A stretch of DNA of 38,250 nt from a virus (Duplodnaviria; Heunggongvirae; Uroviricota; Caudoviricetes). Under the pieces are notes generated by a model, which did no database searches, was not told where the DNA came from, and worked only from the letters and a program-made list of their open reading frames with translations. Position numbers and translations under genes: made by a program. Numbering within the stretch: the first letter of the stretch is position 1; the number at the start of each line of letters is the position of its first letter. Shown one piece after another: positions 9,966-37,677 of the stretch. The DNA is taken from the IMG/VR virus record IMGVR_UViG_2687453297_000004. One strand, given 5' to 3'.

Positions 9966-9993
9966 ATGCAAGACTACTTACCTCCTTCTGAGC

Positions 9994-10897: not shown

Positions 10898-10951
10898 GTT
10901 CTTTCATGATGCGGCAGGGATGGCGGGATTTCTGTTAATGTGGTTTAGGGA

Positions 10952-12755: not shown

Positions 12756-12757
12756 TC

Positions 12758-18399: not shown

Positions 18400-19201
18400 A
18401 CTGGCGTACTGCATGACGCTTCCCCCGAAGCGGGCAGTCAGTTACCTGAAGTCCAAAGGGTATCAGATTACCTGGGACTGGGAAGAAATGTGGCAGGAAG
18501 CCCATGCCCGCGCCTTTACCGTCGCTAAAGTGACCCGCCTGGATATTCTGGAAGATATTCGCGGGGCACTGCAGCAGGCTGTCGATGAAGGAAAAACCGA
18601 TCGCTGGTTCCGGCAGGAGCTGGAGCCGGTGCTGAAGCGTAAGGGATGGTGGGGACCACGTGACACGACTGACCCGGTAACGGGTGAGCCGGTCACCATT
18701 CAGCAGGGCAGCCCGTGGCGGCTCGACACCATCTTTCGCACCAATATGTCCGTACTCTACAGCGCCGGTCGTTGGGCGGAGCAGATGGAAAACGTCGACG
18801 ACAGGCCGTACTGGATGTATACCGGCATCAACGACAGCCATACCCGCAGGAGCCATCTGGCGCTGCATGGTCTGGTGCTGCGCTGGGATGACCCGTTCTG
18901 GCAGGCATTTTACCCGCCGAACGGCTGGCGCTGCCGCTGTAGTGTGATTGCCCTGAGTGCGGCGGATGTCCGTGCCCGTGGCCTGAAGGTTATCAGCTCC
19001 GGCTCTGCCATGGGCCAGGAACTGAAACTGGTCTCAGAGAAAACCGGCGAAATGCGGAACGTGGCCACCTTTAATACCGGCACCACGAAGGTGACCACCG
19101 ACGTCGGCTGGTCTTATGCACCGGGGGCAGCATACCGTCCCGACCTGGCCCGCTATCAGGGTACGCTTCAGCCACTGGCACAACAGGAACTGAGAGGATA
19201 A
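18380..19201 (+). CDS. Head morphogenesis protein (Mu F / SPP1 gp7 family)
   Basis: About 273 aa from the internal ATG 18380; contains the family-typical segment NDSHTRRSHLALHG. Confidence 0.75.
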   Translation: MSVTTAELAYCMTLPPKRAVSYLKSKGYQITWDWEEMWQEAHARAFTVAKVTRLDILEDIRGALQQAVDEGKTDRWFRQELEPVLKRKGWWGPRDTTDPVTGEPVTIQQGSPWRLDTIFRTNMSVLYSAGRWAEQMENVDDRPYWMYTGINDSHTRRSHLALHGLVLRWDDPFWQAFYPPNGWRCRCSVIALSAADVRARGLKVISSGSAMGQELKLVSEKTGEMRNVATFNTGTTKVTTDVGWSYAPGAAYRPDLARYQGTLQPLAQQELRG

Positions 19202-19203
19202 CA

Positions 19204-19662
19204 ATGGCTTCCGATAACCTGGTCAGTATCACCATTAACGATAAGTCCCTGCGCCGGAGCCTCCGTGCGCTGGATCTTGCTGCCACAGACCTGGAGCCCG
19301 CGATGCGCAAAATCGCCGGAACCCTGCTGGCGGAAACACAGTTTAACTTTCTTGATGAGGGGCGTCCGGGGTGGATGCCCTCGCTGGCAGCGGAAGAACG
19401 TGACGGGCAGACACTGCAGGATACCGGGCGTCTGATGGGGTCAGTATCAACCGACCATGACGACCGGCAGGCTGTTGTGGGGACCAACGTTGTTTACGGT
19501 GCCATTCACCAGTTCGGGGGTAAAACGGGGCGTAATGAGTCTGTTGAACTTCCGGCCCGCCCGTTCCTGCCGGTGACGGGGGATGGAGAACTACAGCCTG
19601 AAGTGGTAATCCCCATCCTCGATACCATTGTCCGCCATCTTGAATCAGCGGCCCGTCGCTGA
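19204..19662 (+). CDS. Virion morphogenesis protein (Mu G-like)
   Basis: 152 aa; position after the F-like gene; remembered similarity to Mu gpG. Confidence 0.6.
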   Translation: MASDNLVSITINDKSLRRSLRALDLAATDLEPAMRKIAGTLLAETQFNFLDEGRPGWMPSLAAEERDGQTLQDTGRLMGSVSTDHDDRQAVVGTNVVYGAIHQFGGKTGRNESVELPARPFLPVTGDGELQPEVVIPILDTIVRHLESAARR

Positions 19663-19704
19663 GTTTTCTCTCTTCAGGCGGGTGATTTATCATTGCCAGC
19701 GAAT

Positions 19705-19750
19705 GAGGGGCTGTATTACCTTTATAAAGGCTTTACAGCCTCTGTTTTAT
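19705..19750 (+). terminator. Candidate intrinsic terminator / regulatory hairpin
   Basis: Stem GAGGGGCTGTA ... TACAGCCTC around a loop containing the perfect palindrome CCTTTATAAAGG, followed by TGTTTTAT, in the 214-bp gap between the G-like and I-like genes. Confidence 0.4.
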
Positions 19751-19876
19751 AACCACCTCCGGTTCACCGCATTGCTTTCCCTGTCCTTCTCCCCTGATGT
19801 TTTCTAAAGCAGATTAAAATCGCCGGGCCTGCATTTCTCACAAACTGTCTCCGACAACATAACGCGGGACAGCAAA

Positions 19877-20992
19877 ATGTCAGCCATTCACATTTTTAAA
19901 GCCGGTACTCATACCGATATGCACGGCAAAAAACTGCCGTTCACGCCAGACGATCTTGCCGCCTGCGTGAAAGCCTATGACCCGTCCGTCCATGAAGCAC
20001 CACTCGTGATTGGTCATCCCAGAACGGAAGACCCGGCGTGGGGCTGGGTGAAAGCCCTGTCGCTCAGCGGCGTCGATCTGATGGCAGAGCCTGCCCAGCT
20101 GGACCCGCAGTTTGCTGAGATGGTCACCGACGGACGATTCAAAAAAGTGTCCGCCTCTTTCTACCTCCCGGATTCACCGTCCAATCCGAAGCCCGGCGTG
20201 CTCTACCTTCGCCATGTGGGCTTTCTCGGGGCACAGCCACCTTCCGTCAAGGGGCTGAAACAGGTGTCCTTCAGTGAGCAGGAAGAAGGTGTGGTGGAGT
20301 TCGCCGACTGGCAGGCCATCACGAATGCCTCCCTGTGGGGAAAGCTGCGCGATTTTCTGATCGCCCGCTTCAGTCTGGACGAGGCAGAAAAAGTCCTGCC
20401 GGAATGGCAGCTCAACAGTCTGCGCGAAGAGGCGTACCGCGACACACTGTCGCAGGATGCAGCAGGTGCACAATTCAGTGAGACAGGCCCGGGGCCGTCT
20501 TCCGCAAGTAACGAGGAATCATCGATGACAAAAGAAGAGATTGAAGCCCTTCAGGAGGAGAACCGCCGCCTGAAGCAGCAGGCTGCTGATCGCGATGCGC
20601 GTGATGCACAGGTCAGACAGGAGCAACTGCATAAGGACAATGTGGCCTTTGCAGAAAAACTGGTCGCAGAGGGCCGTCTGGCTCCCCGCGCCTCCTCCGT
20701 GGTGGTTGCCCTGCTGGATGCCGTCGCCGGTGGCGACAAGCCGGTGGAGTTTGCTGAGGGGGAAAGCCGCACACCGCTGGCCACCGCCTTTCGTTCATTG
20801 CTCTCCGACGGGGAGCCGGTGATGAATTTCGCCGAACAGGCCACAAAAGAGCGTGTCGGCGACACGGTGAAGGTGGATGTGGCAGAGTTTGCGGAAGCCG
20901 ATCCTGAGCGTCTGGCCCTGCATCAGAAAGCAGTGGCCCTGTCCAAAAAAGAAGGCATCAGCTATGAGGCTGCTGTCGCACGCTGCCTGTAA
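19877..20992 (+). CDS. Head maturation protease / scaffold (Mu I-like)
   Basis: 371 aa; position immediately upstream of the major head gene; acidic and coiled-coil C-terminal half consistent with a scaffold. Confidence 0.65.
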   Translation: MSAIHIFKAGTHTDMHGKKLPFTPDDLAACVKAYDPSVHEAPLVIGHPRTEDPAWGWVKALSLSGVDLMAEPAQLDPQFAEMVTDGRFKKVSASFYLPDSPSNPKPGVLYLRHVGFLGAQPPSVKGLKQVSFSEQEEGVVEFADWQAITNASLWGKLRDFLIARFSLDEAEKVLPEWQLNSLREEAYRDTLSQDAAGAQFSETGPGPSSASNEESSMTKEEIEALQEENRRLKQQAADRDARDAQVRQEQLHKDNVAFAEKLVAEGRLAPRASSVVVALLDAVAGGDKPVEFAEGESRTPLATAFRSLLSDGEPVMNFAEQATKERVGDTVKVDVAEFAEADPERLALHQKAVALSKKEGISYEAAVARCL

Positions 20993-21006
20993 TTTAAGGA
21001 GAGAGC

Positions 21007-21960
21007 ATGTCTGATTACTTAAAAGGTAAACGTGTCGTTGATCCGGTACTGACCAGTATCGCCCGTGGCTATAAAAATGCCGCATTCATCGGCGAACGTA
21101 TTTTCCCCGTCGTGCTGACGGACAAGGAAGGCGTGCGTGTACCGACCTTCGGGAAAACCGCCTTTGTGGAATATGACACCGAGCGTGCCGTCGGGGCGGA
21201 CAGCAATGTTCTGGTCCGTGAAAAAACAGGCACGCTGGACCTGGTGCTGGGTGAACACGATCTGGCTGCGCCGGTGGACTATCGCGAGCAGGCGGAGTCC
21301 ATGTTTAACGAAGAGAGCAAGGCCATCCGTCGCGCCACGAATGGCGTGAACCTGCGCCGTGAACTTATCGCTGCCCGTCTGGCTCAGGATGAAAAGGTCT
21401 ACCGTACCGGGCACGTCAAAAAACTGACAGCCAGTGATCGCTGGGCCGGTGGTAAGGGGGACCCCATCGGGGTGATTGAAGCCGGTATGGAAGCGGTCCG
21501 TACGGCCACGGGGCTGCGTCCTAACCTGATGACCATGGGGGCCGGCGTGATGGCGCTGCTGAAGTTCCACCCGGCGATTCAGGCCGCCATCGGAGCCAAC
21601 GAACGCAAGCGCATCACCACAGAAATCCTGCAGGACCTCTTTCAGATCGAAGAGATCGTCATCGGTGCCCCGGTCTCCCTGCCGTCCATGAAAGCGGCAA
21701 TGGATAAGAACAGCGTGCCGGCGGATATCTGGGGAGACAATCTGATGCTGCACTATGTCGGCAAACCGCAGCCGGGGGCGGACAGCGCGGACGAGAACGA
21801 GCCGTCCTTCGGCTACACCCTGCGTCGTAAGGGGATGCCTGTTGCCGACAAATACGACGGAGCCGGTGGCAAGGTGAAGTACTGCCGTTATACCGATATC
21901 TACAAAGTCGCCGTGGTTGGTGGCGATGCCGGGTATCTCATTACCGGTATCAGTAAATAA
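21007..21960 (+). CDS. Major head subunit (Mu T-like)
   Basis: 317 aa; follows the protease/scaffold gene; SD GGAGAG upstream. Confidence 0.75.
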   Translation: MSDYLKGKRVVDPVLTSIARGYKNAAFIGERIFPVVLTDKEGVRVPTFGKTAFVEYDTERAVGADSNVLVREKTGTLDLVLGEHDLAAPVDYREQAESMFNEESKAIRRATNGVNLRRELIAARLAQDEKVYRTGHVKKLTASDRWAGGKGDPIGVIEAGMEAVRTATGLRPNLMTMGAGVMALLKFHPAIQAAIGANERKRITTEILQDLFQIEEIVIGAPVSLPSMKAAMDKNSVPADIWGDNLMLHYVGKPQPGADSADENEPSFGYTLRRKGMPVADKYDGAGGKVKYCRYTDIYKVAVVGGDAGYLITGISK

Positions 21961-21969
21961 GGAGGCGTT

Positions 21970-22308
21970 ATGGGAACCACTCAGCAGGTCATTCTGATCA
22001 CAACCGTAACGGCAGGGGCAGCACTGGCACAGCAGCGTTTTGTCGGGGCAGATAATACCCCCTGTAAAGCCGGTGCCGCAGCGCTCGGGGTTGCCGAAGT
22101 GGATGCTGTTACCGGCGACAGCACGCCGGTGAGCGTTCTGGGCATTATTGCTGTCGAGGCCGGGGCCGCTGTCAGCCGTGGTGTGGCTGTTCAGTCAGAT
22201 GCTCAGGCCAGAGCCGTGCCGCAGTCCGGCGACGGTAAATCCTGTGGTATTGCACTTGATGAAGCCGGGGGTGAAGGCGACGTCATTCGTATCCTGCGCG
22301 GGGTGTGA
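21970..22308 (+). CDS. Hypothetical head-associated protein
   Basis: 112-aa Ala/Gly/Val-rich ORF directly after the major head gene with SD GGAGG. Confidence 0.45.
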   Translation: MGTTQQVILITTVTAGAALAQQRFVGADNTPCKAGAAALGVAEVDAVTGDSTPVSVLGIIAVEAGAAVSRGVAVQSDAQARAVPQSGDGKSCGIALDEAGGEGDVIRILRGV

Positions 22309-22309
22309 C

Positions 22310-22756
22310 ATGTACTGCACCCTGGAGGATTTGCTTGCGCAGGTGCCGGAGCGGACGCTTATCGAGCTCACCAGTGAAGAGATGGACTTCGACTCACCTG
22401 CAACAGTGAATACCCGTGTGGTGGACAGCTGTATCCGCTATGCCGACGAGCTGATTGATGCCCATCTGCGCGGACGCTATATCCTGCCACTGGCAGAGAT
22501 ACCGACTGTTCTGCGGGACATTGCCATCACGCTGGTCCGTTACCGGCTCTACGCCCGCCGCCCGGAAGGTGACCTCCCGGATACGGTGAAGGATGACCAC
22601 AAAGAAGCGCTGCGGCAACTCAGGGAGTTACGTGATAACAGGCTCACGCTGGGGCTGCCGTCCACTCAGAAAGATGTGCCTGAGCCTGGCGAGTTTCGTG
22701 TACGCAGTCGCCCGGCTACTTTCGGCGGTCGTGACGGTTTACTGGAGAAATACTGA
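22310..22756 (+). CDS. Head-tail connector/completion protein (Mu gp36-like)
   Basis: About 148 aa from ATG 22310, directly after the upstream stop; conserved position in Mu-like head modules. Confidence 0.5.
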   Translation: MYCTLEDLLAQVPERTLIELTSEEMDFDSPATVNTRVVDSCIRYADELIDAHLRGRYILPLAEIPTVLRDIAITLVRYRLYARRPEGDLPDTVKDDHKEALRQLRELRDNRLTLGLPSTQKDVPEPGEFRVRSRPATFGGRDGLLEKY

Positions 22757-23220
22757 TGAACGTTCTGCCCGTCCTTGATGCGGTACTGGCCCGGTTACGC
22801 GAGAAGCTGCCGCAACTGCAGGTGGAGTACTTCCCGGAGAAACCGGCTGAATATCGCCTGAACCATCCGGTTGGCGCGTTGCTGCTGAGCTATGCCGGTT
22901 CGCGCTTTGACAGGCCGGATGATACCGGTGCGGTGATCCAGTCTCAGACTATCCAGCTCTGCGTCACGGTGGTCTTCCGCCAGCTCAACGGTAAAAAAGG
23001 GGCGATTAATGTCCTGGATGCTGTCCGCCGCATTCTCGGTGGCCACACCCCGCCCGGCTGCCGCCGCCGTATCTGGCTGACCCGCGAGGTGTTTATCGGT
23101 GAAGTCAGGGGGCTGTGGCAGTACGCCCTCGACTTCGCGACTGAAAGCGTCTTTATCGAAGACAGCGATTTACCGTCCGGCCCGCTGTTAACCGAAGTGA
23201 ACTATGAGGAAAGCGAGTGA
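22756..23220 (+). CDS. Head-tail joining protein (Mu gp37-like)
   Basis: 154 aa; ATGA overlap with the upstream gene. Confidence 0.5.
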   Translation: MNVLPVLDAVLARLREKLPQLQVEYFPEKPAEYRLNHPVGALLLSYAGSRFDRPDDTGAVIQSQTIQLCVTVVFRQLNGKKGAINVLDAVRRILGGHTPPGCRRRIWLTREVFIGEVRGLWQYALDFATESVFIEDSDLPSGPLLTEVNYEESE

Positions 23221-23471
23221 TGAAAGAATACCGCTATTCCGGCCCGGCCAGCGGCGTCACGCTGTCGGACGGAACCGAAATCCTGCTCTGGCCGGGGAAG
23301 ACGGTTTCCCTGCCGGAGGAGCATGACTACGTGAAGGTACTGGTGGCGCTGAAACATCTGACGCCGGTACCTGAAGAGACTAAACCCGCCGGCACACCGG
23401 CTGTGCAGTCACCAAAGCGCAGAAGCAGCAGTGACAGCGAAGTGAAAACGGAGGACACCCATGGCAGCTAA
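23217..23471 (+). CDS. Small protein upstream of the sheath gene (Mu gp38-like)
   Basis: 84 aa; overlapping start and stop with both neighbours. Confidence 0.45.
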   Translation: MMKEYRYSGPASGVTLSDGTEILLWPGKTVSLPEEHDYVKVLVALKHLTPVPEETKPAGTPAVQSPKRRSSSDSEVKTEDTHGS

Positions 23472-24888
23472 CTATCTGCATGGTCCCGAAACCATTGAGG
23501 TGGAAAACGGTGCCCGCCCGGTTAAAACGGTGAAATCTGCCGTTATTGGCCTGATTGGTACCGCCCCGATGGGGGATGTCAATACGCTGGTACAGTGCCT
23601 GTCTGAGAAAGACGCAGCGGCATTTGGCAGCCAGTTCACCGGCTTTACCATTCCGCAGGCGCTGGATGCGATTTATGACCATGGTGCAGGTACCGTTCTG
23701 GTCATTAACGTCCTCGACCCGGCGAAACATAAAACGGCGATCGAGGATGAGGTGGTTACCTTTGACAAATCGACAGGGCAGGCCAGACTGGCGCATCCGG
23801 TTGTCGCTAATGTGGTGGTGAAAAACAGTGAAGGCAGCACCACCCACACGGCGAACACGGACTACCGTGTTGATGCGCAGGCGGGTGTGCTCACGAACCT
23901 GGGCAAGGCTATTGAGGCCGGTGGCAGCGTGAAGGTGAGCTATGAGTACGCGGACCCGTCGAAGGTGACTGCGGCGGACATCATCGGCGGGGTGAACAGC
24001 GCCGGAAACCGAACCGGCATGAAGCTGCTTAACGACAGCTTCAACCTGTACGGCTATTTCGCCAAAATTCTGATTGCGCCGGTGTTCTGCACCCAGAAGA
24101 GTGTCGCAGTTGAGCTTATCGCCATGGCAGAGAAGCTGGGCGCGGTAACCTACATTGATGCGCCTGTCGGTACCACCTTTGCACAGGCTCTGGCAGGTCG
24201 TGGCCCGGAAGGCACCATCAACTTCAATACCAGCTCCGACCGCGTCCGTCTGTGCTATCCGCATGTGAAGGTATATGACCCGGTGACAAACACAGAGCGT
24301 CTGGAGCCGCTCAGCCAGCGTGCAGCAGGTCTGCGTGCCAGAGTCGATCTGGACAAGGGCTACTGGTGGTCATCCTCCAATCAGGAGATTCTGGGGATCA
24401 CCGGCGTGGAGCGCCAGCTGTCCGCGATGATTGATGACCCGCAGAGTGAGGTGAACCTGCTTAACGAACAGGGGATCACCACGGTATTCAGCAGTTACGG
24501 CAGCGGCCTTCGTCTGTGGGGTAACCGGACGGCAGCATGGCCAACGGTCACCCATATGCGTAACTTTGAGAACGTTCGCCGCACCGGTGATGTGATCAAC
24601 GAGTCCATTCGTTATTTCAGCCAGCAGTACATCGACATGCCGATTACTCAGGCGCTGATTGATGCACTGACGGAGTCGGTCAACGCCTACGGTCGCAAAA
24701 TGACTGGTGATGGTGCGGTACTGGGCTTCCGTTGCTGGTTTGATCCGGCCCGCAATCCGGAGACGGAGCTGGCCGCCGGGCACCTGTTGCTGAGCTACAA
24801 ATATACGCCACCACCGCCGCTGGAGCGACTGACGTTTGAGACTGAGATCACCTCGGAATACCTGTTAACCCTGAAAGGGGGCAACTGA
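23461..24888 (+). CDS. Contractile tail sheath protein
   Basis: 475 aa; immediately followed by the tube gene. Confidence 0.85.
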   Translation: MAANYLHGPETIEVENGARPVKTVKSAVIGLIGTAPMGDVNTLVQCLSEKDAAAFGSQFTGFTIPQALDAIYDHGAGTVLVINVLDPAKHKTAIEDEVVTFDKSTGQARLAHPVVANVVVKNSEGSTTHTANTDYRVDAQAGVLTNLGKAIEAGGSVKVSYEYADPSKVTAADIIGGVNSAGNRTGMKLLNDSFNLYGYFAKILIAPVFCTQKSVAVELIAMAEKLGAVTYIDAPVGTTFAQALAGRGPEGTINFNTSSDRVRLCYPHVKVYDPVTNTERLEPLSQRAAGLRARVDLDKGYWWSSSNQEILGITGVERQLSAMIDDPQSEVNLLNEQGITTVFSSYGSGLRLWGNRTAAWPTVTHMRNFENVRRTGDVINESIRYFSQQYIDMPITQALIDALTESVNAYGRKMTGDGAVLGFRCWFDPARNPETELAAGHLLLSYKYTPPPPLERLTFETEITSEYLLTLKGGN

Positions 24889-25409
24889 TGTCAAAGATTG
24901 AGATAAACCGCATCACGAATGCCAACATCTATCTGGATGGTACTAACCTGCTGGGACGGGCTGAGGAAGTTAAACTCCCCGATGTCTCCATGATTATGCA
25001 GGAACACAAGGCGCTGGGGATGGTGGGTAAGGTGGAACTCCCGGCTGGTTTTGACAAACTGGAAGGCGAAATCAAATGGAACAGCTTTTACCGCGATGCG
25101 ATGCTGTCTGCCGCGAACCCGTACAGGTCGCTGGCACTGCAGTGTCGTTCCAGCGTCCAGCGCTACAGCTCGCAGGGGCTGATTGACGAAATCCCGCTGG
25201 TCACCTTCCTGACGATTATGTTCAAGAAGAACCCGCTGGGGACGTTCAAACAGCACGAGAACGCCGAGTTCTCCAGTAGCTTCACCTGCACGTATATCAG
25301 ACAGGTACTGGATGGTGAAGAGCTGCTGCAACTGGACTATCTGGCCAACATCTTCCGGGTCGGCGGTGTTGATCAACTGACTGACTACCGTATCAATATC
25401 GGGGGCTGA
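24888..25409 (+). CDS. Tail tube protein
   Basis: 173 aa; ATGA overlap with the sheath gene. Confidence 0.8.
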   Translation: MSKIEINRITNANIYLDGTNLLGRAEEVKLPDVSMIMQEHKALGMVGKVELPAGFDKLEGEIKWNSFYRDAMLSAANPYRSLALQCRSSVQRYSSQGLIDEIPLVTFLTIMFKKNPLGTFKQHENAEFSSSFTCTYIRQVLDGEELLQLDYLANIFRVGGVDQLTDYRINIGG

Positions 25410-25411
25410 CG

Positions 25412-25693
25412 GTGAGTGTTGAACTGACGGATAAAGGAGGACGATGTGCGGCACTGGGCATGTCAAATGGTACGTGGTTTACCCTCCTTGATATTCCGGG
25501 GGTGGAAACCCTTTTTAATACCCGTAAAACCAATGACCCGATTGACTGCACACGTTCAAAGGCCCGCAAACTGGCGGATTTGATTGAAGCATGGGAGCCT
25601 CCCGACCACTGGTTCTCCGGCACCGGCAAATCTGAGGGAAAGACGCTTCTCATCGCTTTCCTGCGTAACTGCAAGGGGTTTCGCACTTGCTGA
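25412..25693 (+). CDS. Hypothetical protein downstream of the tube gene
   Basis: 93-aa ORF from GTG 25412; weak start signals. Confidence 0.3.
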   Translation: MSVELTDKGGRCAALGMSNGTWFTLLDIPGVETLFNTRKTNDPIDCTRSKARKLADLIEAWEPPDHWFSGTGKSEGKTLLIAFLRNCKGFRTC

Positions 25694-25699
25694 CATCAC

Positions 25700-25722
25700 A
25701 GGGGCTCCGGCCCCTTCTTCTT
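25700..25722 (+). terminator. Candidate intrinsic terminator/attenuator after the sheath-tube genes
   Basis: AGGGGC-TCCG-GCCCCT hairpin followed by TCTTCTT. Confidence 0.35.
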
Positions 25723-25790
25723 AATCTCCTTTAATATCCGTCACGCGCTTCTCCCGACATACTGCCCTGAACTTACACAGGAGCACAATC

Positions 25791-26126
25791 ATGTCACAGA
25801 CCCCATCCGATACTTTTAAATTGTCTTATCCCTTCACCACTGCTGCAGGCACCAGAATTGAGCTGGTTGAACTGAAACGCCTGACGGTAAAAGACCTGAA
25901 GCAGGTGCGCAAAATCAGCAAAAACCCGGCAGACTGGGACGAACCGCTGATTGCCCGCAGTACTGGTCTTCTCCCGGAAGATCTCGACAATATGGATCTG
26001 GCTGATTACCTGCAGTTACAGAAACGATTTCAGCTCATCACGGGGATGGGTGAGAGCAACCAGGGCGCTGACGCAGGCGCAGGGGCTGCTGGCGAGATGG
26101 TTCCGGTTTCAGCCGGGGGAGATTGA
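25791..26126 (+). CDS. Tail assembly chaperone (short form)
   Basis: 111 aa; SD AGGAG upstream; located between tube and tape measure genes, with an overlapping ORF in another frame. Confidence 0.6.
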   Translation: MSQTPSDTFKLSYPFTTAAGTRIELVELKRLTVKDLKQVRKISKNPADWDEPLIARSTGLLPEDLDNMDLADYLQLQKRFQLITGMGESNQGADAGAGAAGEMVPVSAGGD

Positions 26127-26208
26127 TGCCCTCGATACTGACGATCTGGAGATGTGGCTGGAGCAGGCTGAAGAGCAAATCAAAAGCGAGTACGGCGACA
26201 AATCATAG
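25791..26208 (+). CDS. Tail assembly chaperone, frameshift-extended long form (predicted shift at the G5 run about 26115..26119)
   Basis: A second ORF (25951..26208) overlaps the 3' end of the chaperone ORF and lies in the +1 (equivalently -2) frame relative to it; GGGGG run sits 2 codons before the stop. Confidence 0.4.
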
Positions 26209-26283
26209 TACAGACAGCCGCCAGTAGCGGCTGTTCTGCGTTATCCCCTCACGTCTTTTCACCTTCCCCGGAGGTTAACCACT

Positions 26284-29200
26284 ATGTCGGGACAGTTTTC
26301 AGTCGGCGTTGTTATCGGCGGGATGATTGGCAGCACATTCCGTTCTGCAATGAGCGGTACCCGCCGTGCGCTTGATTCCCTGAGCGATACCTCACGCCGC
26401 CTGCAGGAACGTCAGAACGCTTTAACCCGTGCAACAGAACGTTATGGTCAACTGGGTTCTTCCCGGATGCAGCATCTCAACAGCGAGCTGCTGCGGGTAA
26501 GCCGCACCATGGAGCAAATTGAGCGCCAGCAGCGCCGTCTGTCAGCGGCATCCGCTACCAGTGATGCGCTGAAAGCTAACCGCATGGCGCTGTATGGTCA
26601 GGGGATTGAAGCGTATGGCATGGCACAGACTGTTTATCATACGGTTTCCCCTGCCGTTCAGCAGTCCATGTCTTTTCAGGACAAAATGATTGATATGTCG
26701 ATCACCGCAAAATATGACAATAAAACGCGGGATGCACTTGCCGGACAGATAAAAGGCTGGGCGCTTAAATACAATCAGTATCAGGATGAGCTGCAGGAGG
26801 CGGTGGGTTCACTCATCAGCGACAATATTGATAATGTGTCAGATATCGGTTTTCTGATGCCGGATATTGCCCGCGCGACAACGGCAACACGCACGTCTGC
26901 TCAGGACTGGGCAAAAGTGGCCGCAGTCTGGCAAAACTCCCTGAAAGGTGCGGCCAGAGATTTTGGTGCCGTTCAGAATATTATGGCTTATGCCGGTGAC
27001 CAGGGGTCATTTGAAATCCCGGATCAGGTCAAGTGGATGCAGTCCCTGGCCCCAATGATGGCGGGTATTGCCAGTGGAAAAGAGGCTGTTGCTGAAATCG
27101 GGGCCAGTCTCCAGATAGCAAAAATCGGTGCAGGTTCCACCGACGAAGCAGCCAATAATTTTAAAAACTTTCTTACCAAAATTTTTGCCCGCGATACTCA
27201 GAAACAGTTTGCTGATCTGGGTATTGATTTGCAGGGATCTATTGCGAGTTATAAGGCTGCGGGGATCTCTCCGATTGAAGGGATGTTGAGTGTTATAGAA
27301 CGTTACCTCAATGCCAAAAGCCCCGAAGCGCTGGCCGGCTTCAAATCCGCCATGAAAATAAAGAATGATACGGCAAGAGATGAGGCACTTCAGGCTCTGG
27401 CGAAAAACTTTGGTCTGGGTGATATGTTCGCGGATATGCAGGTCATGGCATTTATCCGCCCGATGCTGGCCAACATGGACAGATATCGAGAGATCCGTGC
27501 CGGTGCTCTCAGGGCTGCGGATAACGATTTGCTTGCCAGTGCTTACGATCAGCGACTGAAATCTCCCCTTGAAGCCACTAAAACACTTATGGTCAGCAGT
27601 CGCGATCTGGCAATTACGCTGGGCGATCAATTAGCTCCATCTTTTATTTCTTTGACTCAGGAACTGCTTCCACTCATTCAGGGGGCAAAACACTGGGTAG
27701 CGACTCACCCGCAATTTGTCAGTGGGGCTTTTAAGCTCATCAGTGCGCTCCTTGCGATTAAGATAGCGACTGTTGGTCTCAAACTGGGGCTGAATCTCCT
27801 TATTTCCCCCTTTGTAAGTGTCTGGAAAAATGCTGTTTTACTCCGGACCAACTGGCATCGACTGACTACCGCACTCGGAGAAGGTGGCAAATTACGCTGG
27901 CTTGTCACTGGATTCAGCCGACTGACCAGCGGAGGACTGAAACTCAGCAAAGTTCTGGCGGGCAGCCTCGTTCGCGGTTTTATGAGCGCTGCACGTGCCG
28001 TTCTCTGGATTGGGCGAGCGCTGATGATGAATCCCATCGGTCTCGTTATCACCGCTGTCGCGGCAGCAGCTTACCTTATCTACCGCAACTGGGGGCTGTC
28101 AGTGGTTGGTTTAAACAGCGCTGGGCTGACATTCAGGAAGCCTTTAACGGCGGCATTGTGGGAACTGGTAAGTTGCTGATTAACTGGTCGCCGGCAGGCC
28201 TGCTCTATAAAGCCTTTGCGGCTGCGCTGAAATATTTCGGCGTTGCTCTGCCGGCAAAGTTCACCGACTTCGGTGGCCATCTTATCGACGGTCTGATTAA
28301 CGGTATCAAAAGCAAATGGGGGTCGCTCAAATCCAGTGTAACCGGAATGGGTGACAGCATCAGTAGCTGGTTTAAACAGCGCTGGGCTGACATTCAGGAA
28401 GCCTTTAACGGCGGCATTGTGGGAACTGGTAAGTTGCTGATTAACTGGTCGCCGGCAGGCCTGCTCTATAAAGCCTTTGCGGCTGCGCTGAAATATTTCG
28501 GCGTTACTCTGCCGGCAAAGTTCACCGACTTCGGTGGCCATCTTATCGACGGTCTGATTAACGGTATCAAAAACAAATGGGGGTCGCTCAAATCCAGTGT
28601 AACCGGAATGGGTGACAGCATCAGTAGCTGGTTTAAACAGTGCTGGGCTGACATTCAGGAAGCCTTTAACGGCGGTATCGCGGGAACTGATAAGCTGCTG
28701 ATTAACTGGTCGCCGGCAGGTCTGCTCTATAAAGCCTTTGCAGCTGCGCTGAAATATCTTGGTGTTGATCTGCCGGCAAAGTTTACCGACTTCGGTGGCC
28801 ATCTTGTCGATGGTCTGATTAACGGTATCAAAAACAAATGGGAGTCGCTCAAATCCAGTGTAACCGGAATGGGCGACAGCATCAGTGGCTGGTTCAGCGA
28901 AAAGCTGGGCATTCATTCGCCGAGCCGCGTGTTTATGGGCTTTGGTGACAATATCGCGCAGGGGGCCGCCATTGGCCTGCAGCGGACCACTCCGCTTGCA
29001 GCTCTGGCCGGGCAGCGAATGGCCAGTGAACTGCTCCCCAAAATGCCCGTGAGCATTCAGGGGCCAGAAATACGGGATAACACTTCAGGTGTTCGCTTCA
29101 GTATGCCGTTGCCCGATATCAATGGGTTTATGTCGTCTGCTAAAAATGCGATCGGAGCCGTAATCAATAGTTTGTCTTCCATGCCCGCTATTCCGCTCTC

Positions 29201-29495
29201 CACCCGGGCATCGATTTTACCAGGGCAACGTCTGGCAAATGAGATGACACCGGATGTTCCCCGTATCCCCTCGCCTGAAATCCTGGCTGCCGGATATTCA
29301 GGCCGTGGTGCAGCTGCAACCGGCGGTGGAACGTCTGGTGGTATCCAGGTCAGCTTTAATCCTCAGTTTTTCCTCAATGGCAGGGAAACCACAGCGCCTG
29401 CAGGACTGACTGGTGCCCTGAATATGAGTCTGCATGAGCTGGAAAAAATGCTGGAGCGTCTGCTGGCTCAGAAACAACGTAAGGAGTACCGCTGA
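26284..29495 (+). CDS. Tail tape measure protein, interrupted by an apparent frameshift at a G5 run (28091..28095)
   Basis: ORFs 26284..28179 and 28158..29495 are in different frames; the protein-like reading switches frame at TGGGGGCTG, and one extra G would fuse them in frame; the C-terminal part contains three tandem 87-aa repeats. Confidence 0.7.
28098..28892 (+). repeat. Three tandem copies of a 261-bp (87-aa) coding repeat within the tape measure gene
   Basis: Near-identical units starting about 28110, 28371 and 28632; matching antisense ORFs at 28205, 28466 and 28727 are spaced exactly 261 bp apart. Confidence 0.9.
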
Positions 29496-30379
29496 TGTTT
29501 GCCGTACTGGGTGATATTGAGTTTGAGCTGATTACCTACTGGGACGGCTTCGAGGCCACGTTCGGCGTCGATTATGCGGAGCATGCCCGCATCGGGGGTA
29601 AGCCTGGCCTGCAGTTCGTCGGCGACAGGCTGGACGAAATCCAGATAACTCTGGTTTTCCATCAGCATTATTGTGTACCCGATGTGGAGCTGGCGAGACT
29701 GCGAACAGCCATGAAAGCCCATCAGGCACTGGCGCTGGTCTTCGGCAACGGTGACTATCGCGGCTGGTTCGTGATTACCGATGTGACTGCAACCAGCGAG
29801 CAGACTGACAGTACCGGCAACGTGCTGGCTGTCAGTGCCACCGTGTCTCTCCGGGAATACACCGGTGACCCGAAAAATCCTCTGCAACCACCGGCAATAC
29901 GCACGAAGCTCCCGGGTGTCGGGGCGGTCTCCGGTGCCATTCCTTCACCTTCCGGGGTGGCGCAGTTCATCCGCAACGGCGTCAACTATGCGAAACAGGC
30001 GCAGTCTGTACTCCAGACCACTATCAGCGCCGTTCGGGTGACACAGAAAATGAAGGATAACCCCGTTGTCGCACTGACCCGTGTGCCGGGGCTGATGAGC
30101 GGACTGGGTAATATCTCCGGGGCTCTGGGGAAAAGTGTTCCGGCGTTTAACGCACTCTCTGAATCCATGCCCGATGCCATCAGTCTGGCCAGAACAGCCA
30201 GCGAAGCAGCCACGTATGTACAGCAGGCACAGTCTGCGCTGAGTGGTGTGGACAAAAGAAATATTGCAGGTGCTCTGGATACCGTTTCCGGGCAGCTTAA
30301 CGCCGTCGGAACAGCATTCAACCGCATGTCTCCGGGATTAAGTGCAATGGCCGCCAGAATACTGACGAGGAGTGTGTGA
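29495..30379 (+). CDS. Tail protein (gpU / DNA-circulation N-terminal domain-like)
   Basis: 294 aa; ATGA overlap with the tape measure stop; assignment mainly from its position in the tail module. Confidence 0.55.
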   Translation: MFAVLGDIEFELITYWDGFEATFGVDYAEHARIGGKPGLQFVGDRLDEIQITLVFHQHYCVPDVELARLRTAMKAHQALALVFGNGDYRGWFVITDVTATSEQTDSTGNVLAVSATVSLREYTGDPKNPLQPPAIRTKLPGVGAVSGAIPSPSGVAQFIRNGVNYAKQAQSVLQTTISAVRVTQKMKDNPVVALTRVPGLMSGLGNISGALGKSVPAFNALSESMPDAISLARTASEAATYVQQAQSALSGVDKRNIAGALDTVSGQLNAVGTAFNRMSPGLSAMAARILTRSV

Positions 30380-30591
30380 TGTTTCTTGAACATGTTACCC
30401 GTGACGGAGAGCGCTGGGATTCGCTGGCATGGCAGTACTACGGTGACCCGCTGGGCTATCCCCGGATTATTGCCGCCAATCCGCACGTGGCCATCACGCC
30501 GGTGCTGCCCTCCGGGCTGTTGTTACTGATCCCGGTGATTGAGGCTGAAGAAGCCCGTACAGAAGAGGATATTGCCCCATGGCTGAGATAA
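30376..30591 (+). CDS. Tail protein X-like
   Basis: 71 aa; resembles P2 gpX-like small tail proteins; lies between the gpU-like and gpD-like genes. Confidence 0.6.
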   Translation: MMFLEHVTRDGERWDSLAWQYYGDPLGYPRIIAANPHVAITPVLPSGLLLLIPVIEAEEARTEEDIAPWLR

Positions 30592-31733
30592 ACAGCACTG
30601 CGCAAGTCACATCAGCGTTAACCGGCGTCAGCGATGTGCTGACACCGGTGTTCACTCTGTGGTATCTGCAGAAAAACATCACCTCTGATATCGCGCCTTA
30701 TGTCACCCGTGTGACCTGGAGCGATAACATCAAAAATGAGTCCGATACCATTGAGGTGGAGCTGGACGACACCGATGGCCGCTGGCTGGATAAGTGGTAT
30801 CCGGGCAAGGGTGACACGCTGACGCTGAAAATGGGCTATCAGGGCGAGAAGCTGCTGTCCTGCGGTACGTTCTCTATAGACGAGATCGAAGTGAGTTCGC
30901 CCGCTTCCGTTGTTTCTATCCGTGGGGTGGCCACCTCGGTTAACAGTGCCCTGCGGACTAAAACCAGTCGTGGTTTTGAGAACACCACGCTGGCAGCTGT
31001 TGCGGGGCGGATTGCCAGAAAGCACCGACTGAAACTGGTGGGCAGCATTGAGTCCATCAGAATCGACCGGGTGACCCAGTATGCTGAAACCGACGTGGGT
31101 TTTCTGCGCCGGCTGGCCAGCGAGTATGGTTATGCAGTGAAAGTGGTCAGTGACCAGCTGATTTTTTCTCATCTGGCCACACTGCGCAGTCAGGAGCCGG
31201 TCAGGCAGTTAAAACCGCAGGATGTGGCCCGCTTTTCCCTGCGTGACACCATCAACCGGGTCTATAAATCTGCAAAGGTAAAACACCAGAAAAGCAGCAG
31301 TAAAAAACTGATCGTCTACGAAGCTGATGGTGGTACCCGTGAAAGCGACAAAAAGCTCAAAGGTGGTAAGGTTACCAGCGCTGACTCACTTAAAGTTAAC
31401 AGCCGCGTCAGCGACCCGGACAGTGCCCGGATTAAAGCGGATTCAGCACTGGCCAGACATAACGAATACCAGCAGAACGGCTCCCTGACGCTGACGGGAA
31501 CACCTCAACTGACAGCAGGCAACAAAATTGAACTGGTGGGTTTTGGGCAGTTATCCGGGCCATGGCTCATAACCACTGCCCGCCATGCGTTTGACCGTAA
31601 CAGCGGCTACACCACAGAGCTGGAAGTGGCACGGGGGCCAGTCACAAGAGGGAAAAAACAAAAAACTCAGAAACTCACGGTTTATCACCCGGATGGCAGT
31701 ACATCGACGGTGATTAAGGAGAAGAAAAAATGA
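30579..31733 (+). CDS. Late control protein D-like tail/baseplate protein
   Basis: 384 aa; resembles the P2 gpD family; upstream of the spike gene. Confidence 0.7.
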   Translation: MAEINSTAQVTSALTGVSDVLTPVFTLWYLQKNITSDIAPYVTRVTWSDNIKNESDTIEVELDDTDGRWLDKWYPGKGDTLTLKMGYQGEKLLSCGTFSIDEIEVSSPASVVSIRGVATSVNSALRTKTSRGFENTTLAAVAGRIARKHRLKLVGSIESIRIDRVTQYAETDVGFLRRLASEYGYAVKVVSDQLIFSHLATLRSQEPVRQLKPQDVARFSLRDTINRVYKSAKVKHQKSSSKKLIVYEADGGTRESDKKLKGGKVTSADSLKVNSRVSDPDSARIKADSALARHNEYQQNGSLTLTGTPQLTAGNKIELVGFGQLSGPWLITTARHAFDRNSGYTTELEVARGPVTRGKKQKTQKLTVYHPDGSTSTVIKEKKK

Positions 31734-32326
31734 CTGGTGTCACTCGTCAGGTCGGTACGGTCAGTGCCGTTGATGCCGACAGGGTTCAGGCCCGCGTTCG
31801 TCTGCCTGAATGCGATAACCTGCGCACAAACTGGCTTAACGTGCTGCAGCGCAATACCCAGGATAACAAAGATTACTGGCTCCCTGACGTGGGGGAGCAG
31901 GTTGAGGTGCTGCTCGATGCCAACGGCGAGGATGGTGTTATTCTGGGCGCGGTGTATTCAGACGTCGATAAACCACCGTTCAGTGACAAAAATATCCGGG
32001 GAACCCGGTTTGCTGATGGTGCAGAGTACAGCTACAACCGGAAGACGCACACTCTGACCATCCGGGGCGGCATTGAGCATATTGTCATTGAGTGTGGTGC
32101 TGATGTGGTATTGAAAACACAGAAAGCCACGATTGACGCACCGGAAACCGAACTTACCGGAGATCTGCGTGTCAGGGGTAAGCTGATTTACGAAGGAGGC
32201 ATGGCGGGTTCTGGTGGTGAAGGTGTTACCGCGACCATCCATGGCAATATCGAGATTAAAGGGAATGCCCATGCCACGGGCAGTATGTTGTCTGATGGCG
32301 AAAACTCCAGCCACCACTCCCACTGA
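31730..32326 (+). CDS. Baseplate spike protein (gpV-like)
   Basis: 198 aa; N-terminal region and position consistent with a P2 gpV-type baseplate spike. Confidence 0.7.
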   Translation: MTGVTRQVGTVSAVDADRVQARVRLPECDNLRTNWLNVLQRNTQDNKDYWLPDVGEQVEVLLDANGEDGVILGAVYSDVDKPPFSDKNIRGTRFADGAEYSYNRKTHTLTIRGGIEHIVIECGADVVLKTQKATIDAPETELTGDLRVRGKLIYEGGMAGSGGEGVTATIHGNIEIKGNAHATGSMLSDGENSSHHSH

Positions 32327-32380
32327 GCTTTTTAAACGCCTTTAATATCAGCGTTCCCGCACGGGGGCAATACTGCCCCC

Positions 32381-32728
32381 ATGAAAACAACCTCAGTATT
32401 CTGGCAACCAGCCCTGCAGGCTCCCGGCGAAATTGTCCGGGGGCTGGATGATATCCGGCAGGCGATTCAAATTATCCTGCGGACTCCCCGCGGCAGCGAC
32501 CCGCATCGCCCGGAGTTCGGCAGCAATCTGCATCTTTATATCGACTGGCCTGTAGACCGGGCCATTCCGCATGTGGTGCGCGAATCCGTCGATGCCATCC
32601 GGCGCTGGGAGCCCCGCTGCCAGCTTATGTCAGTTAAACCCGCCGTCGACGGCGAACATCTTACGCTCCGGGTGAGCTGGAAAGGCTCAGACGGACAGAC
32701 CCGGACTCAGGAGCTGCTATGGCGCTGA
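32381..32728 (+). CDS. Baseplate wedge protein (gpW / T4 gp25-like)
   Basis: 115 aa; pattern IRQAIQIILRTPRGSDPHRPEFGSNLH typical of the gpW/gp25 family. Confidence 0.7.
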   Translation: MKTTSVFWQPALQAPGEIVRGLDDIRQAIQIILRTPRGSDPHRPEFGSNLHLYIDWPVDRAIPHVVRESVDAIRRWEPRCQLMSVKPAVDGEHLTLRVSWKGSDGQTRTQELLWR

Positions 32729-33822
32729 CAGAACCCGATTTTATTGAACGCGATGCCGACAAAATTACGGCAGAAATGATTGCGAAGTATGAAGCGGATA
32801 CCGGCAAAACGCTGTACCCGGCACAGGCAGAACGTCTGCTGATTGATCTGTGGGCCTATCGCGAAATGCTGGTCAGGGTTGCGGTACAGGAGGCAGCAAA
32901 GCAGAATCTGGTCGCCTTTGCCCGTGAGCCGATGATTGATTACCTCGGTGAACTGGTTGGTGTATACCGTCTTGCCGCGCAGCCTGCCACCACCACGCTC
33001 CAGTTCTCCGTAGATGAGGCACTGGCCATTGATGTGCTGATCCCGGCAGGCACCCGCGTCAGCGCTTCCGACAGCGTTATTTTTGCCACCGATACAGATG
33101 TGGTACTGAAGGCCGGATTGCTGCTGGTCAATGTCACGTCCACCTGTACCGAACCCGGTACCGCTGGTAACGGCTGGCAACCTGCGCAGGTCAGTCAGTT
33201 ACTCGATGAGATTGATAACGTCGACCTGCTGGTGAGCAATCTGACGGCCAGTTCCGGCGGTTCAGAACAGGAAGACGATGACAGGCTCCGGGAGCGTATC
33301 AGGCTGGCCCCGGAGTCATTCACCAATGCCGGAAGCCGTGGCGCATACCGCTTTCATGCCATGCAGGCCCATCCCAACATTGTCGATGTTGCTGTGCTTT
33401 CCCCGGTTCCCGGGACCGTAGATCTGTATCCGCTGCTCAGTACCGGTCTGCCGGACGGCGGTGTTCTCACGCTGGTAGAGAGTTTCTGCTCTGATGAGAA
33501 AGTCAGGCCACTCACTGATACAGTGCGGGCTAAAACACCAGTGAAGGTGGATTACACCATTGAAGCCAGGATTACGATCTATCGTGATCAGGATGCCAGG
33601 TCTGTAAAAGATGCCGCTAACAGCGCCATACAGAACTGGGTGGCATCACGTGCCGCCACGCTGGGGCGCGATATTGTCCCCAGCCAGATTATCAGTGCAT
33701 TGTCCGTTTCCGGGGTGTACCAGGTTGAACTGGTGACACCGGCACTGCGGGTGGTGGCAGAAAACGAATGGGCAAACTGTACGGCAATCACTCTTAACAT
33801 GACTGGAGTGTCTGATGACTGA
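32719..33822 (+). CDS. Baseplate J-like protein
   Basis: 367 aa; follows the gpW-like gene with overlapping start. Confidence 0.7.
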   Translation: MALTEPDFIERDADKITAEMIAKYEADTGKTLYPAQAERLLIDLWAYREMLVRVAVQEAAKQNLVAFAREPMIDYLGELVGVYRLAAQPATTTLQFSVDEALAIDVLIPAGTRVSASDSVIFATDTDVVLKAGLLLVNVTSTCTEPGTAGNGWQPAQVSQLLDEIDNVDLLVSNLTASSGGSEQEDDDRLRERIRLAPESFTNAGSRGAYRFHAMQAHPNIVDVAVLSPVPGTVDLYPLLSTGLPDGGVLTLVESFCSDEKVRPLTDTVRAKTPVKVDYTIEARITIYRDQDARSVKDAANSAIQNWVASRAATLGRDIVPSQIISALSVSGVYQVELVTPALRVVAENEWANCTAITLNMTGVSDD

Positions 33823-34393
33823 GCCATTACAACTCCCGCCACCGCTTGAGGGTGATATCAGTCTCAGGACGCTGGGAAGACTGGCAGGACGGCTGGATAA
33901 CATCGACCTGAGCGTACTGATGGTCTTTCTCGTCGATATCGTCGACAGTTCCGCGCTGCCATGGCTGGGCGAGCAGTTCTCACTGTCTGGCGATGGCTGG
34001 GAGCTGGCGGAATCGGACGGTGTTCGCCGCATGCTTATAAAAGCAGCCATCGAACTGCACCGGTATAAAGGGACGCCGTGGTCAATCCGGGAAGTTATCC
34101 GCCGTTTTGGCTTTGGTGAAGTGGATCTGATTGAAGGCACAGGTCGTCTCAGTTACGACGGCAATCGCAGCTATAACGGACTGTTTGTTCATGGAGATGC
34201 AGCCGCCTGGGCAGTTTATCGCGTTATTCTGAAACAGCCCATTACTAACGATCAGGCCGCGATGCTGCGTCAGACGCTGGCTGCATTTGCACCGGCCCGC
34301 TGCCATCTGGCCAGCCTGGAGTATCAGTCTGTGGCCATTCGCTATAACAATACAGCCATCCATGATGGCAGTTATAACCACGGGAGCAGTTGA
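33815..34393 (+). CDS. Tail protein (P2 gpI-like baseplate component)
   Basis: 192 aa between the J-like and tail fiber genes. Confidence 0.6.
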   Translation: MTEPLQLPPPLEGDISLRTLGRLAGRLDNIDLSVLMVFLVDIVDSSALPWLGEQFSLSGDGWELAESDGVRRMLIKAAIELHRYKGTPWSIREVIRRFGFGEVDLIEGTGRLSYDGNRSYNGLFVHGDAAAWAVYRVILKQPITNDQAAMLRQTLAAFAPARCHLASLEYQSVAIRYNNTAIHDGSYNHGSS

Positions 34394-35991
34394 TTATGGG
34401 AAACCTGAATGAAACAGAAAAGTGGGAAGAAAATATCTATCAACTGGAGACATCAGATCCGGTTCTGGGTGGTGCAGACGGGATATCAAATCGAGCCCCC
34501 CGGCAACTGGCAAACAGGACGAAATGGCTGAAGAAGAAAACGGAGGAAGCCGCACAGTCACTGGCTGAACACGTACGTTCCCGTAACCACCCGGACGCGA
34601 CACTGACAGCTAAGGGGTTCACCCAACTGAGCAGTGCCACCAACAGCACCTCTGAAACGCTGGCCGCCACACCAAAAGCGGTCAAGGCTGCATACGACCT
34701 GGCAGCCGGCAAGGCGCCTGCCAGCCACACTCACCCGTGGAGTCAGATAACGGGAGTGCCTGCGGCTTCACTGACGGCAAAAGGCACCGTACAACTGAGC
34801 AGCGCCACGGACAGTCAATCAGAAACTGAGGCTGCCACGCCGAAGGCTGTGAAAATCGCGTATGATCTGGCCCGGGGAAAATACACAGCCCAGGATGCAA
34901 CAACGACCCGTAAAGGGATCGTACAACTGAGCAGTGCCATCAACAGCACGTCTGAAACGCTGGCCGCCACACCAAAAGCGGTCAAGGCTGCATACGACCT
35001 GGCAGCCGGCAAGGCGCCTGCCAGCCACACTCACCCGTGGAGTCAGATAACGGGAGTGCCTGCGGCTTCACTGACGGCAAAAGGCACCGTACAACTGAGC
35101 AGCGCCACGGACAGTCAATCAGAAACTGAGGCTGCCACGCCGAAGGCGGTCAAGGCTGCATACGACCTTGCAGCCGGCAAGGCGCCCGTCAGCCACACTC
35201 ACCCGTGGAGTCAGATAACGGGAGTGCCTGCTGCCTCGCTGACGGCAAAAGGCACCGTACAACTGAGCAGTGCCATCAACAGCACGTCTGAAATACTGGC
35301 CGCCACACCGAAAGCGGTCAAGGCTGCATACGATCTGGCAAACGGAAAACAACCGGCAGATGCCACGCTCACTGCTCTGGCAGGACTTGCCACTGCAGCA
35401 GATCGGTTGCCTTATTTTACCGGAGCAGACCGCGCAGCGCTGGCAACCCTTACAGCTATTGGTCGCGCTATTATCGCTAAGGGCAGTATAAAAGATGTCC
35501 TCAATTACCTTGGTTTGGGGGAAGGCTCGGCGCTGCCCGTTGGTGTACCTGTTCCGTGGCCCACTGCCACACCGCCAGCAGGCTGGTTACAGTGCAACGG
35601 AGCTACGTTCACCAAAGAACAATATCCTGTTCTGGCCAGAGTCTACCCGACCCTCCGTCTTCCCGATTTGCGCGGTGAGTTTATCCGTGGATGGGATGAC
35701 GGACGAAAGATTGACACCGGGCGTGCCCTGCTAAGCAGCCAGAGCGGAATGATTGAGAAACACCGTCATATTGTTGTTGCCAATGATGGTTACGACACAA
35801 AAGATGAATGGGAACTGGCTGCGATTTTCAAAAAAACATACACACAAGGACGAGGACTTGATGCCACAAATACAGGAGGGAGTCTGACCCCATCACCAAC
35901 ACTTCATTCGCGAGGGAGTATCGGTAATACTGGCGGGAGGGAAACCCGTCCACGAAATATTGCCTTTAACTACATTGTCAGGGCGGCCTAA
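34390..35991 (+). CDS. Tail fiber protein (constant N-terminal part, internal fiber repeats, currently fused to C-terminal cassette 1)
   Basis: 533 aa; five copies of the motif VQLSSAxxSxSETxAATPKAVKxAYDLA; C-terminus PRNIAFNYIVRAA; a conserved linker (VPVPWPTATPPAGWL...) recurs in two downstream cassettes. Confidence 0.8.
   Translation: MIMGNLNETEKWEENIYQLETSDPVLGGADGISNRAPRQLANRTKWLKKKTEEAAQSLAEHVRSRNHPDATLTAKGFTQLSSATNSTSETLAATPKAVKAAYDLAAGKAPASHTHPWSQITGVPAASLTAKGTVQLSSATDSQSETEAATPKAVKIAYDLARGKYTAQDATTTRKGIVQLSSAINSTSETLAATPKAVKAAYDLAAGKAPASHTHPWSQITGVPAASLTAKGTVQLSSATDSQSETEAATPKAVKAAYDLAAGKAPVSHTHPWSQITGVPAASLTAKGTVQLSSAINSTSEILAATPKAVKAAYDLANGKQPADATLTALAGLATAADRLPYFTGADRAALATLTAIGRAIIAKGSIKDVLNYLGLGEGSALPVGVPVPWPTATPPAGWLQCNGATFTKEQYPVLARVYPTLRLPDLRGEFIRGWDDGRKIDTGRALLSSQSGMIEKHRHIVVANDGYDTKDEWELAAIFKKTYTQGRGLDATNTGGSLTPSPTLHSRGSIGNTGGRETRPRNIAFNYIVRAA
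34621..35340 (+). repeat. Near-identical 300-bp tandem duplication inside the tail fiber gene
   Basis: 34621..34856 and 34921..35156 are almost identical by direct comparison; a partial third unit follows to about 35340. Confidence 0.85.
35498..35523 (+). other. Candidate serine-invertase crossover site (gix/hix-like), site a, inside the tail fiber gene
   Basis: ...ACC TT GGTTTGGGGGAA at the 5' boundary of a homology block of about 190 bp shared with the inverted cassette at 37410..37606. Confidence 0.45.
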
Positions 35992-36008
35992 ACGTTGGTT
36001 TAGGAGAA
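35983..36008 (+). other. Candidate crossover site b (direct orientation relative to site a)
   Basis: CCTAAACG TT GGTTTAGGAGAA with imperfect dyad CCTAAAC/GTTTAGG, overlapping the tail fiber stop, at the 5' edge of cassette 2. Confidence 0.4.
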
Positions 36009-36029
36009 GGCTCGGCGCTACCCGTTGGT

Positions 36030-36512
36030 GTGCCTGTTCCGTGGCCCACCGCCACACCGCCAGCAGGCTGGTTAAAGTGCGACGGGCGCGCCTTTACAAA
36101 AGAACAATATCCTGTTCTGGCCAGAGCCTACCCGACCCTCCGTCTTCCCGATTTACGCGGTGAGTTTATCCGTGGATGGGACGACGGGCGCAAAGTTGAT
36201 ACAGGACGTAAGTTGCTGTCCGCACAAGGGGCAACGCTGTTAAGAACAGCAATGCTGGATTATTATAACCAGGACACTACGGGAACCTCGGGGATAGTCG
36301 GCATGGGATTCAACAATGAAGATTCCATTACAGACCTTCGTGAGGGCAGCTTTAAAATGCCGGACGGGACAACATTCAGCGATCCTGTCGTGGCAATGTC
36401 AGACAATGGTATGCAGGCTACTATTCTGACCTCTATCAGAAGCGGGTATGCGAAGGGTATCACTGTCAGACCCCGTAGCATTGCACTTAATTACATTGTG
36501 AGGGCAGTTTAA
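36030..36512 (+). CDS. Alternative tail fiber C-terminal cassette 2 (no independent start; frame open from about 35970)
   Basis: Begins with the conserved linker VPVPWPTATPPAGWLKCDG...LRGEFIRGWDDGRK, then a divergent distal domain ending SIALNYIVRAV; its stop overlaps the start of the tail fiber assembly gene. Confidence 0.6.
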   Translation: MPVPWPTATPPAGWLKCDGRAFTKEQYPVLARAYPTLRLPDLRGEFIRGWDDGRKVDTGRKLLSAQGATLLRTAMLDYYNQDTTGTSGIVGMGFNNEDSITDLREGSFKMPDGTTFSDPVVAMSDNGMQATILTSIRSGYAKGITVRPRSIALNYIVRAV

Positions 36513-37126: not shown

Positions 37127-37132
37127 ACGGTA

Positions 37133-37606: not shown

Positions 37607-37623
37607 ACCAACGTTTATCTCTC
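37598..37623 (-). other. Candidate crossover site c (inverted relative to sites a and b)
   Basis: Reverse complement reads AGATAAACG TT GGTTTGGGGGAA, at the boundary of the inverted homology block and 55 bp upstream of the invertase gene. Confidence 0.45.
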
Positions 37624-37677
37624 AAATCCTCCCCACATTATCTCAGTACTTTAACCACTCAAAAGGGAGTATTTTTA

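Follow-up and report, generated by a model that had tools for sequence, protein, structure and literature searches.

The window, by which we mean the whole 38,250-nucleotide stretch analysed here (IMG/VR record IMGVR_UViG_2687453297_000004), is almost a whole BcepMu-like (Bcepmuvirus) or Mu-like transposable prophage of Escherichia coli. Among deposited phages, Escherichia phage PhiKM (PQ738613, genus Bcepmuvirus) comes closest, being 97.7% identical over the gene for the tape-measure protein (TMP), and relatives are carried by approximately 640 of 5,426 complete E. coli genomes. The prophage is inserted within ssuB in SK1144 and within a DUF2300 gene in Ecol_745, which fits a transposing phage. 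The prophage in the window is a mosaic: its early and lysis region (1-16880) is nearly identical, with 4 mismatches, to the prophages of Ecol_745, E8 and R4, and its late region (15425-35147) most resembles the SK1144 group (99.7%). Substitutions are concentrated at 15445-19755, suggesting a recombination junction. Within the tail-fibre region (34600-37700), there are several internal matches to the SK1144 locus, some direct and some inverted; one of them is an inverted block of 1.66 kb (35956-37614) adjoining the recombinase gene at the right end of the window. This pattern fits an invertible host-range segment of the Gin/Cin type that lies here the other way round.

The tail genes are arranged as sheath (from 23461), tube (24888), a small ORF, the Phage_TAC_7 gene (25791), the TMP gene (26284-29495) and a gpU-like gene (29495), followed by genes for tail X, gpD and the baseplate proteins V, W and J. 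The TMP gene lies where it is expected for the family, with the pair of tail assembly chaperone genes directly ahead of it and the baseplate and tail-completion genes behind. The features around the gene are as follows.

25791..26126, plus strand: tail assembly chaperone (Phage_TAC_7, from Pfam), immediately upstream of the TMP gene
Open to 26208, plus strand: overlapping extension of the chaperone in the +1/-2 frame (phrog_8286)
26284..28179, plus strand: upstream TMP fragment of 631 codons, comprising 604 native residues (to ...YRNWG) and 27 out-of-frame residues
28091..28095, plus strand: G5 run, from which one base has been deleted; G6 in the relatives (TGG GGG GCT, read as W G A)
28095..29495, plus strand: downstream TMP part in the -1 frame, 466 codons and a stop, without a start of its own
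28099-28894, plus strand: tandem array of three copies of a 261-bp (87-aa) repeat (Tandem Repeats Finder, 95% matching, no indels)
29495..30379, plus strand: intact gene for a gpU-like tail protein, starting at the TMP stop codon

The break in the TMP gene can be read directly from the window. Positions 28081-28100 are TACCGCAACTGGGGGCTGTC, and the G5 run at 28091-28095 lies in the local sequence CTGGGGGCTG. The native part of ORF 26284..28179 ends in ...AAAAYLIYRNWG, after which come 27 out-of-frame residues, LSVVGLNSAGLTFRKPLTAALWELVSC, and a premature TGA (28177-28179). The out-of-frame peptide of the truncated product (LSVVGLNSAGLTFR) resembles nothing found downstream. Open over 27762-29495, the -1 frame reads ...LPQLGAVSGWFKQRWADIQEAFNGGIVGTGK..., from the G run onward ...AVSGWFKQRWADIQEAFNGGIVGTGK...; its earliest possible start codon is a GTG at 28158, preceded by a weak GGCGG 4 nt upstream. 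As the tandem array starts at 28099, the G run sits 4 nt before the repeats. When one G is added to the run, the computed translation is an uninterrupted TMP of 1070 aa, in agreement with the length of about 1070 aa proposed in the first-pass annotation and with that of the SK1144 orthologue.

Profile searches identify both ORFs as tape-measure sequence. The restored TMP matches Pfam PF10145 (PhageMin_Tail) at residues 159-340 with 71.3 bits, the cutoff being 33.2. Two PHROG profiles annotated as tail length tape measure, phrog_28 (E = 3.9e-113) and phrog_5690 (E = 4.8e-143 and 8.3e-186 for the two halves), reach residue 603/604 of the upstream ORF and carry on in the downstream ORF. Positions 106-677 of phrog_28 correspond to residues 1-603 of the upstream ORF and positions 678-770 to the downstream ORF; positions 112-600 of phrog_5690 are found in the upstream ORF and positions 633-893 in the downstream ORF. 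Because consecutive parts of the same profiles are distributed over them, the two ORFs are pieces of one TMP gene, broken exactly at the G run. Their adjacency is no chance juxtaposition, as the profiles continue across the break and the orthologues are collinear with exactly one extra G.

The relatives were compared with the window at the G run by several searches. Both SK1144 and PhiKM have CTGGGGGGC at this site, one G more than the window, and the SK1144 orthologue (DAECLI1_RS15465) is open over 1070 codons and differs from the restored TMP of the window at 3 of 1070 residues. With a query of 80 nt that has the G run at its centre, the site was found to be covered in 612 complete E. coli genomes; 59 full-length rows, taken at even intervals from the ranked hits, all span 81 nt, and only a partial match of 32 nt reaches 99% identity or more. 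A 42-mer with the G5 junction at its midpoint, which is unable to seed on the G6 allele, gave no match among the complete E. coli genomes with either the flanks of the window or the commoner CAGTCAGTGGCTGG flanks, while the corresponding G6 43-mer, our positive control, matched 91 genomes. A pattern permitting G4 to G8 returned 17 IMG/VR, 1 GTDB representative and 25 metagenome contigs. The regular-expression check took in 43 loci (42 pattern hits and PhiKM), all 43 of which, from IMG/VR, metagenomes, GTDB representatives and PhiKM, carry G6. Klebsiella phage KP12, approximately 85% identical, has an in-frame G6 as well. G5 in a clean context was found in none of the other public sequences searched, and the exact products of the 631-aa ORF and of the downstream ORF, whether begun at GTG 28158 or at ATG 28347, are absent from a collection of 153 billion genes.

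Given this uniform G6 state of the relatives, the window carries a one-base deletion. A single continuous ORF for the whole ruler is present in all relatives examined and is broken only in the window, at 28091-28095; thus, the TMP copy of the window is a disrupted member of the family and, as encoded, a pseudogene. The first-pass annotation had placed a frameshift that splits the TMP gene at the G5 run, and this is borne out by the run itself, by the continuity of the PHROG profiles and by G6 in the orthologues. Orthologues made of two separate genes, which had been named there as an observation that would speak against a split, were looked for and not found, all orthologues being one ORF with G6.

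The surroundings of the G run also vary among the relatives and have caused difficulties in public records. The 87-aa repeat is present in one, two or three copies among the relatives (loci L004-L046 and L054), giving stop-to-stop frames of 921, 1008 and 1095 codons, respectively; KP12 (L054) has a single copy. This variation predicts polymorphism in tail length of roughly 13 nm per repeat, if a rise of about 1.5 Å per residue holds. In SK1144 (NZ_AP018784.2, locus L001, 1585-4797), PGAP calls the TMP gene a pseudogene ('incomplete; missing C-terminus') ending at 4350; the gene is actually open over 1070 codons, and the repeat array is probably the source of the mis-call. In IMGVR_UViG_2740892433_000005 (L006), an expanded repeat array is joined via N, GGCAGGNGGGGGGCTG. 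We considered this locus as an independent frameshift, as it has the same out-of-frame tail PLTAALWELVSC, and rejected it, the mis-joined array with N being an assembly artefact. Contig NZ_PJIO01000028.1 (L021; 8,241 bp), deposited under 'Arthrobacter sp. GMC3', carries an E. coli-type Mu-like TMP gene with G6 and two repeats at low coverage, and an IMG/VR contig (L020) equals it in length and in the position of the match; the contig in the Arthrobacter assembly is most likely a contamination. This G6 run, lying just ahead of a 3 x 261-bp repeat, gives assemblers and annotators repeated trouble: among the relatives, bases have been lost from homopolymers, a repeat array has been joined wrongly and an open ORF has been called a pseudogene.

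The first-pass annotation had offered three causes for the split: a sequencing or assembly error, a genuine inactivating mutation and ribosomal -1 slippage. The first two remain, whereas the third finds no support as a programmed signal, given G6 in the relatives, a motif that is not prone to shifting and a downstream region without structure, as detailed below. We lean, with no great confidence, towards a genuine and recent deletion by replication slippage, private to this strain; that the G is missing from the DNA rather than from the reads is what we infer from the quality of the surrounding sequence. Compared with the Ecol_745 prophage, the window shows 4 mismatches and no indel over 16.9 kb, and compared with SK1144 it shows 60 substitutions over 19.7 kb, with the G-run indel as the only one. 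The deletion is therefore the only indel in about 35 kb against near-identical relatives, 38 kb of the assembly being visible. All of the 137 other homopolymer runs of at least 5 bases in 1-35147 have the length found in the relatives, including long ones (a G7 at 15882-15888, a G6 at 15248-15253, three C6 and two A7), and 21 other late genes are open. By contrast, an error-bearing assembly of a relative (GCA_039615175.1, L047) has 24 indels in 8.4 kb against the window.

If the deletion is genuine, the TMP gene, the equivalent of Mu gp42, would have lost one G from its G6 run, TGG GGG GCT becoming TGG GGG CT, and translation as encoded would stop 27 codons past the deletion. The 631-aa product would be without the C-terminal 466 residues, which hold all three copies of the 87-aa repeat as well as the C-terminal domain. 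Judging by lambda gpH and other well-studied tape measures, a TMP shortened in this way should not support the assembly of tails of correct length. The prophage would then be tail-defective and non-infectious, with its early, lysis, head and other tail genes intact. An otherwise pristine Mu-like prophage unable to build tails would represent a very recent first step of decay.

When the three residue differences from SK1144 are polarised on the 43 loci, A137D and L880P are derived in SK1144 and G803D (28690) is derived in the window. A test for relaxed selection after the frameshift accordingly finds one derived substitution only, G803D, in the downstream part, too few to speak for or against such relaxation. 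Because this part is undecayed beyond G803D, a real mutation would have to be very recent.

The main competing explanation is that the strain truly has G6 and an intact 1070-aa TMP, and that one G was dropped in base-calling or in the consensus. We give this reading a considerable chance of being right, albeit one short of even. The intact downstream reading frame is as it predicts. The G5 allele occurs only once in a set of about 655 related sequences, and neither fragment has its exact product on record in the collection of 153 billion genes. Other allele backgrounds, at least four of them (proteins P0001, P0002, P0003, P0005 and P0012), show an identical loss from G6 to G5, and wherever the context of these other G5 cases was inspected, the assembly proved to be riddled with indels; in Canu 'tig' assemblies carrying G5, the sheath, tube, TMP and gpD genes are all fragmented. 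Since the other G5 cases lie in such assemblies, the G run is a demonstrated hotspot of sequencing error. The search with the truncated protein tail gave 46 short-fragment candidates, a number to be read with the proviso that clean 631-aa alleles may hide in clusters represented by full-length proteins. A single leftover homopolymer deletion per 38 kb would also fit a reasonably polished long-read assembly. Nevertheless, an error-prone platform should miss the length of some of the longer runs, which are all right in the window, and no further indel is seen in about 35 kb. If the split is an artefact after all, the correct annotation would be an unbroken gene for a tape measure of 1070 aa. Either way, a one-base indel in a homopolymer of a prophage structural gene, be it mutation or artefact, is routine, and the significance of this case beyond annotation is small.

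A third explanation accepts G5 as genuine and regards it as functional: full-length TMP would still arise when tRNA-Gly slips by -1 on G_GGG or when the polymerase slips, as a leaky 'savior' indel or as programmed or phase-variable control of virion production. A -1 slip of the P-site tRNA on G_GGG re-pairs perfectly and would give the wild-type ...NWGAVSGW..., as read from the sequence. A background trickle of full-length TMP is therefore conceivable, since the slip regenerates exactly the wild-type sequence. A few copies of the tape measure per virion suffice. A precedent for low-level compensatory frameshifting on a G run is known from the herpesvirus thymidine kinase (PMC5009743).

The motif and its surroundings argue against this explanation, which we regard as very improbable. 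The zero frame, AAC UGG GGG CUG, contains no X_XXY_YYZ heptamer and only the tetramer G_GG.G. In a systematic study in E. coli, tetramers (Z_ZZ.N) without a stimulator gave approximately 0.15% frameshifting against a background of 0.11%, even a pseudoknot did not make G_GG.N motifs prone to frameshifting, and the small G_GG.G signal was ascribed to Shine-Dalgarno-like internal initiation (PMC4066793). The 94 nt downstream (28097-28190) fold no better than their shuffles (minimum free energy -23.1 kcal/mol, mean of the shuffles -23.6, z = 0.17), and we found no stimulatory structure there. The conserved two-frame arrangement expected of a recoding site is absent at the G run from all relatives examined. 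Run length does not vary among the relatives in clean sequence context, all of them having G6, so the polymorphism among strains that marks a phase-variable tract is absent as well. A G5 run is also too short for appreciable transcriptional slippage. We accordingly reject programmed -1 slippage at the G run, and nothing suggests that slippage at this site is selected or significant. A weaker form, in which the prophage is throttled and wild-type TMP is restored by a rare -1 slip or by reversion from G5 to G6 during replicative transposition, strikes us as similarly far-fetched. If it held true, the low number of TMP copies needed per virion would let a small share of the induced cells go on producing infectious phage, which would make the G run a leaky or reversible switch of infectivity.

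That the repeat-containing part is a genuine second gene with its own start has a negligible chance of being correct: the GTG at 28158 with GGCGG 4 nt upstream lends it some weak support, but this context is incidental because repeats 2 and 3 contain it too, no start codon occurs in the -1 frame between 27762 and 28158, so that 21 conserved residues (AVSGWFKQRWADIQEAFNGGI) would be lost, all orthologues have a single ORF, and the profile matches cross the junction unbroken.

The chaperone gene and its overlapping frame are expected to be decoded by Mu-type recoding like that of lambda G/GT, and a -2 shift is given for Mu in a review (PMC5009743). We examined a second G5 run, at 26115-26119, as a conserved slip site of the chaperone and rejected it, because the zero-frame stop lies upstream of that run in KP12.

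Comparison with known systems places the split gene as follows. The programmed frameshift of tail chaperones (lambda G/GT; -2 in Mu; PMC5009743) belongs to the same tail module, and the neighbouring gene at 25791..26126 has the extension frame. Chaperone recoding is conserved, whereas the TMP shift affects another gene, runs in the -1 direction and has no counterpart in any relative. The 'savior' indel in the thymidine kinase of herpes simplex virus (G7; PMC5009743) resembles the present case in that an indel in a G run is in principle partly reversible by slippage; the run in the window is shorter than G7, and it bears no sign of selection for the indel or of compensating slippage. The split is like the homopolymer-indel pseudogenes and errors of bacterial assemblies, in which one base is lost from a short mononucleotide run and the downstream frame stays intact. 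Unlike in noisy assemblies, the indel of the window is the only one in about 35 kb, so the usual signature is missing. The closest counterparts are the TMPs of BcepMu-like and Mu-like phages, namely Mup42 of PhiKM (PQ738613) and DAECLI1_RS15465 of SK1144, which share 97.7-99.9% nucleotide identity and the same 87-aa repeats with the window. As in the window, the tail assembly chaperone gene precedes and the gpU-like gene follows the TMP gene in both; the difference is G5 in the window against G6 in PhiKM and SK1144, which leaves the window with a 631-codon ORF and a start-less remainder of 466 codons.
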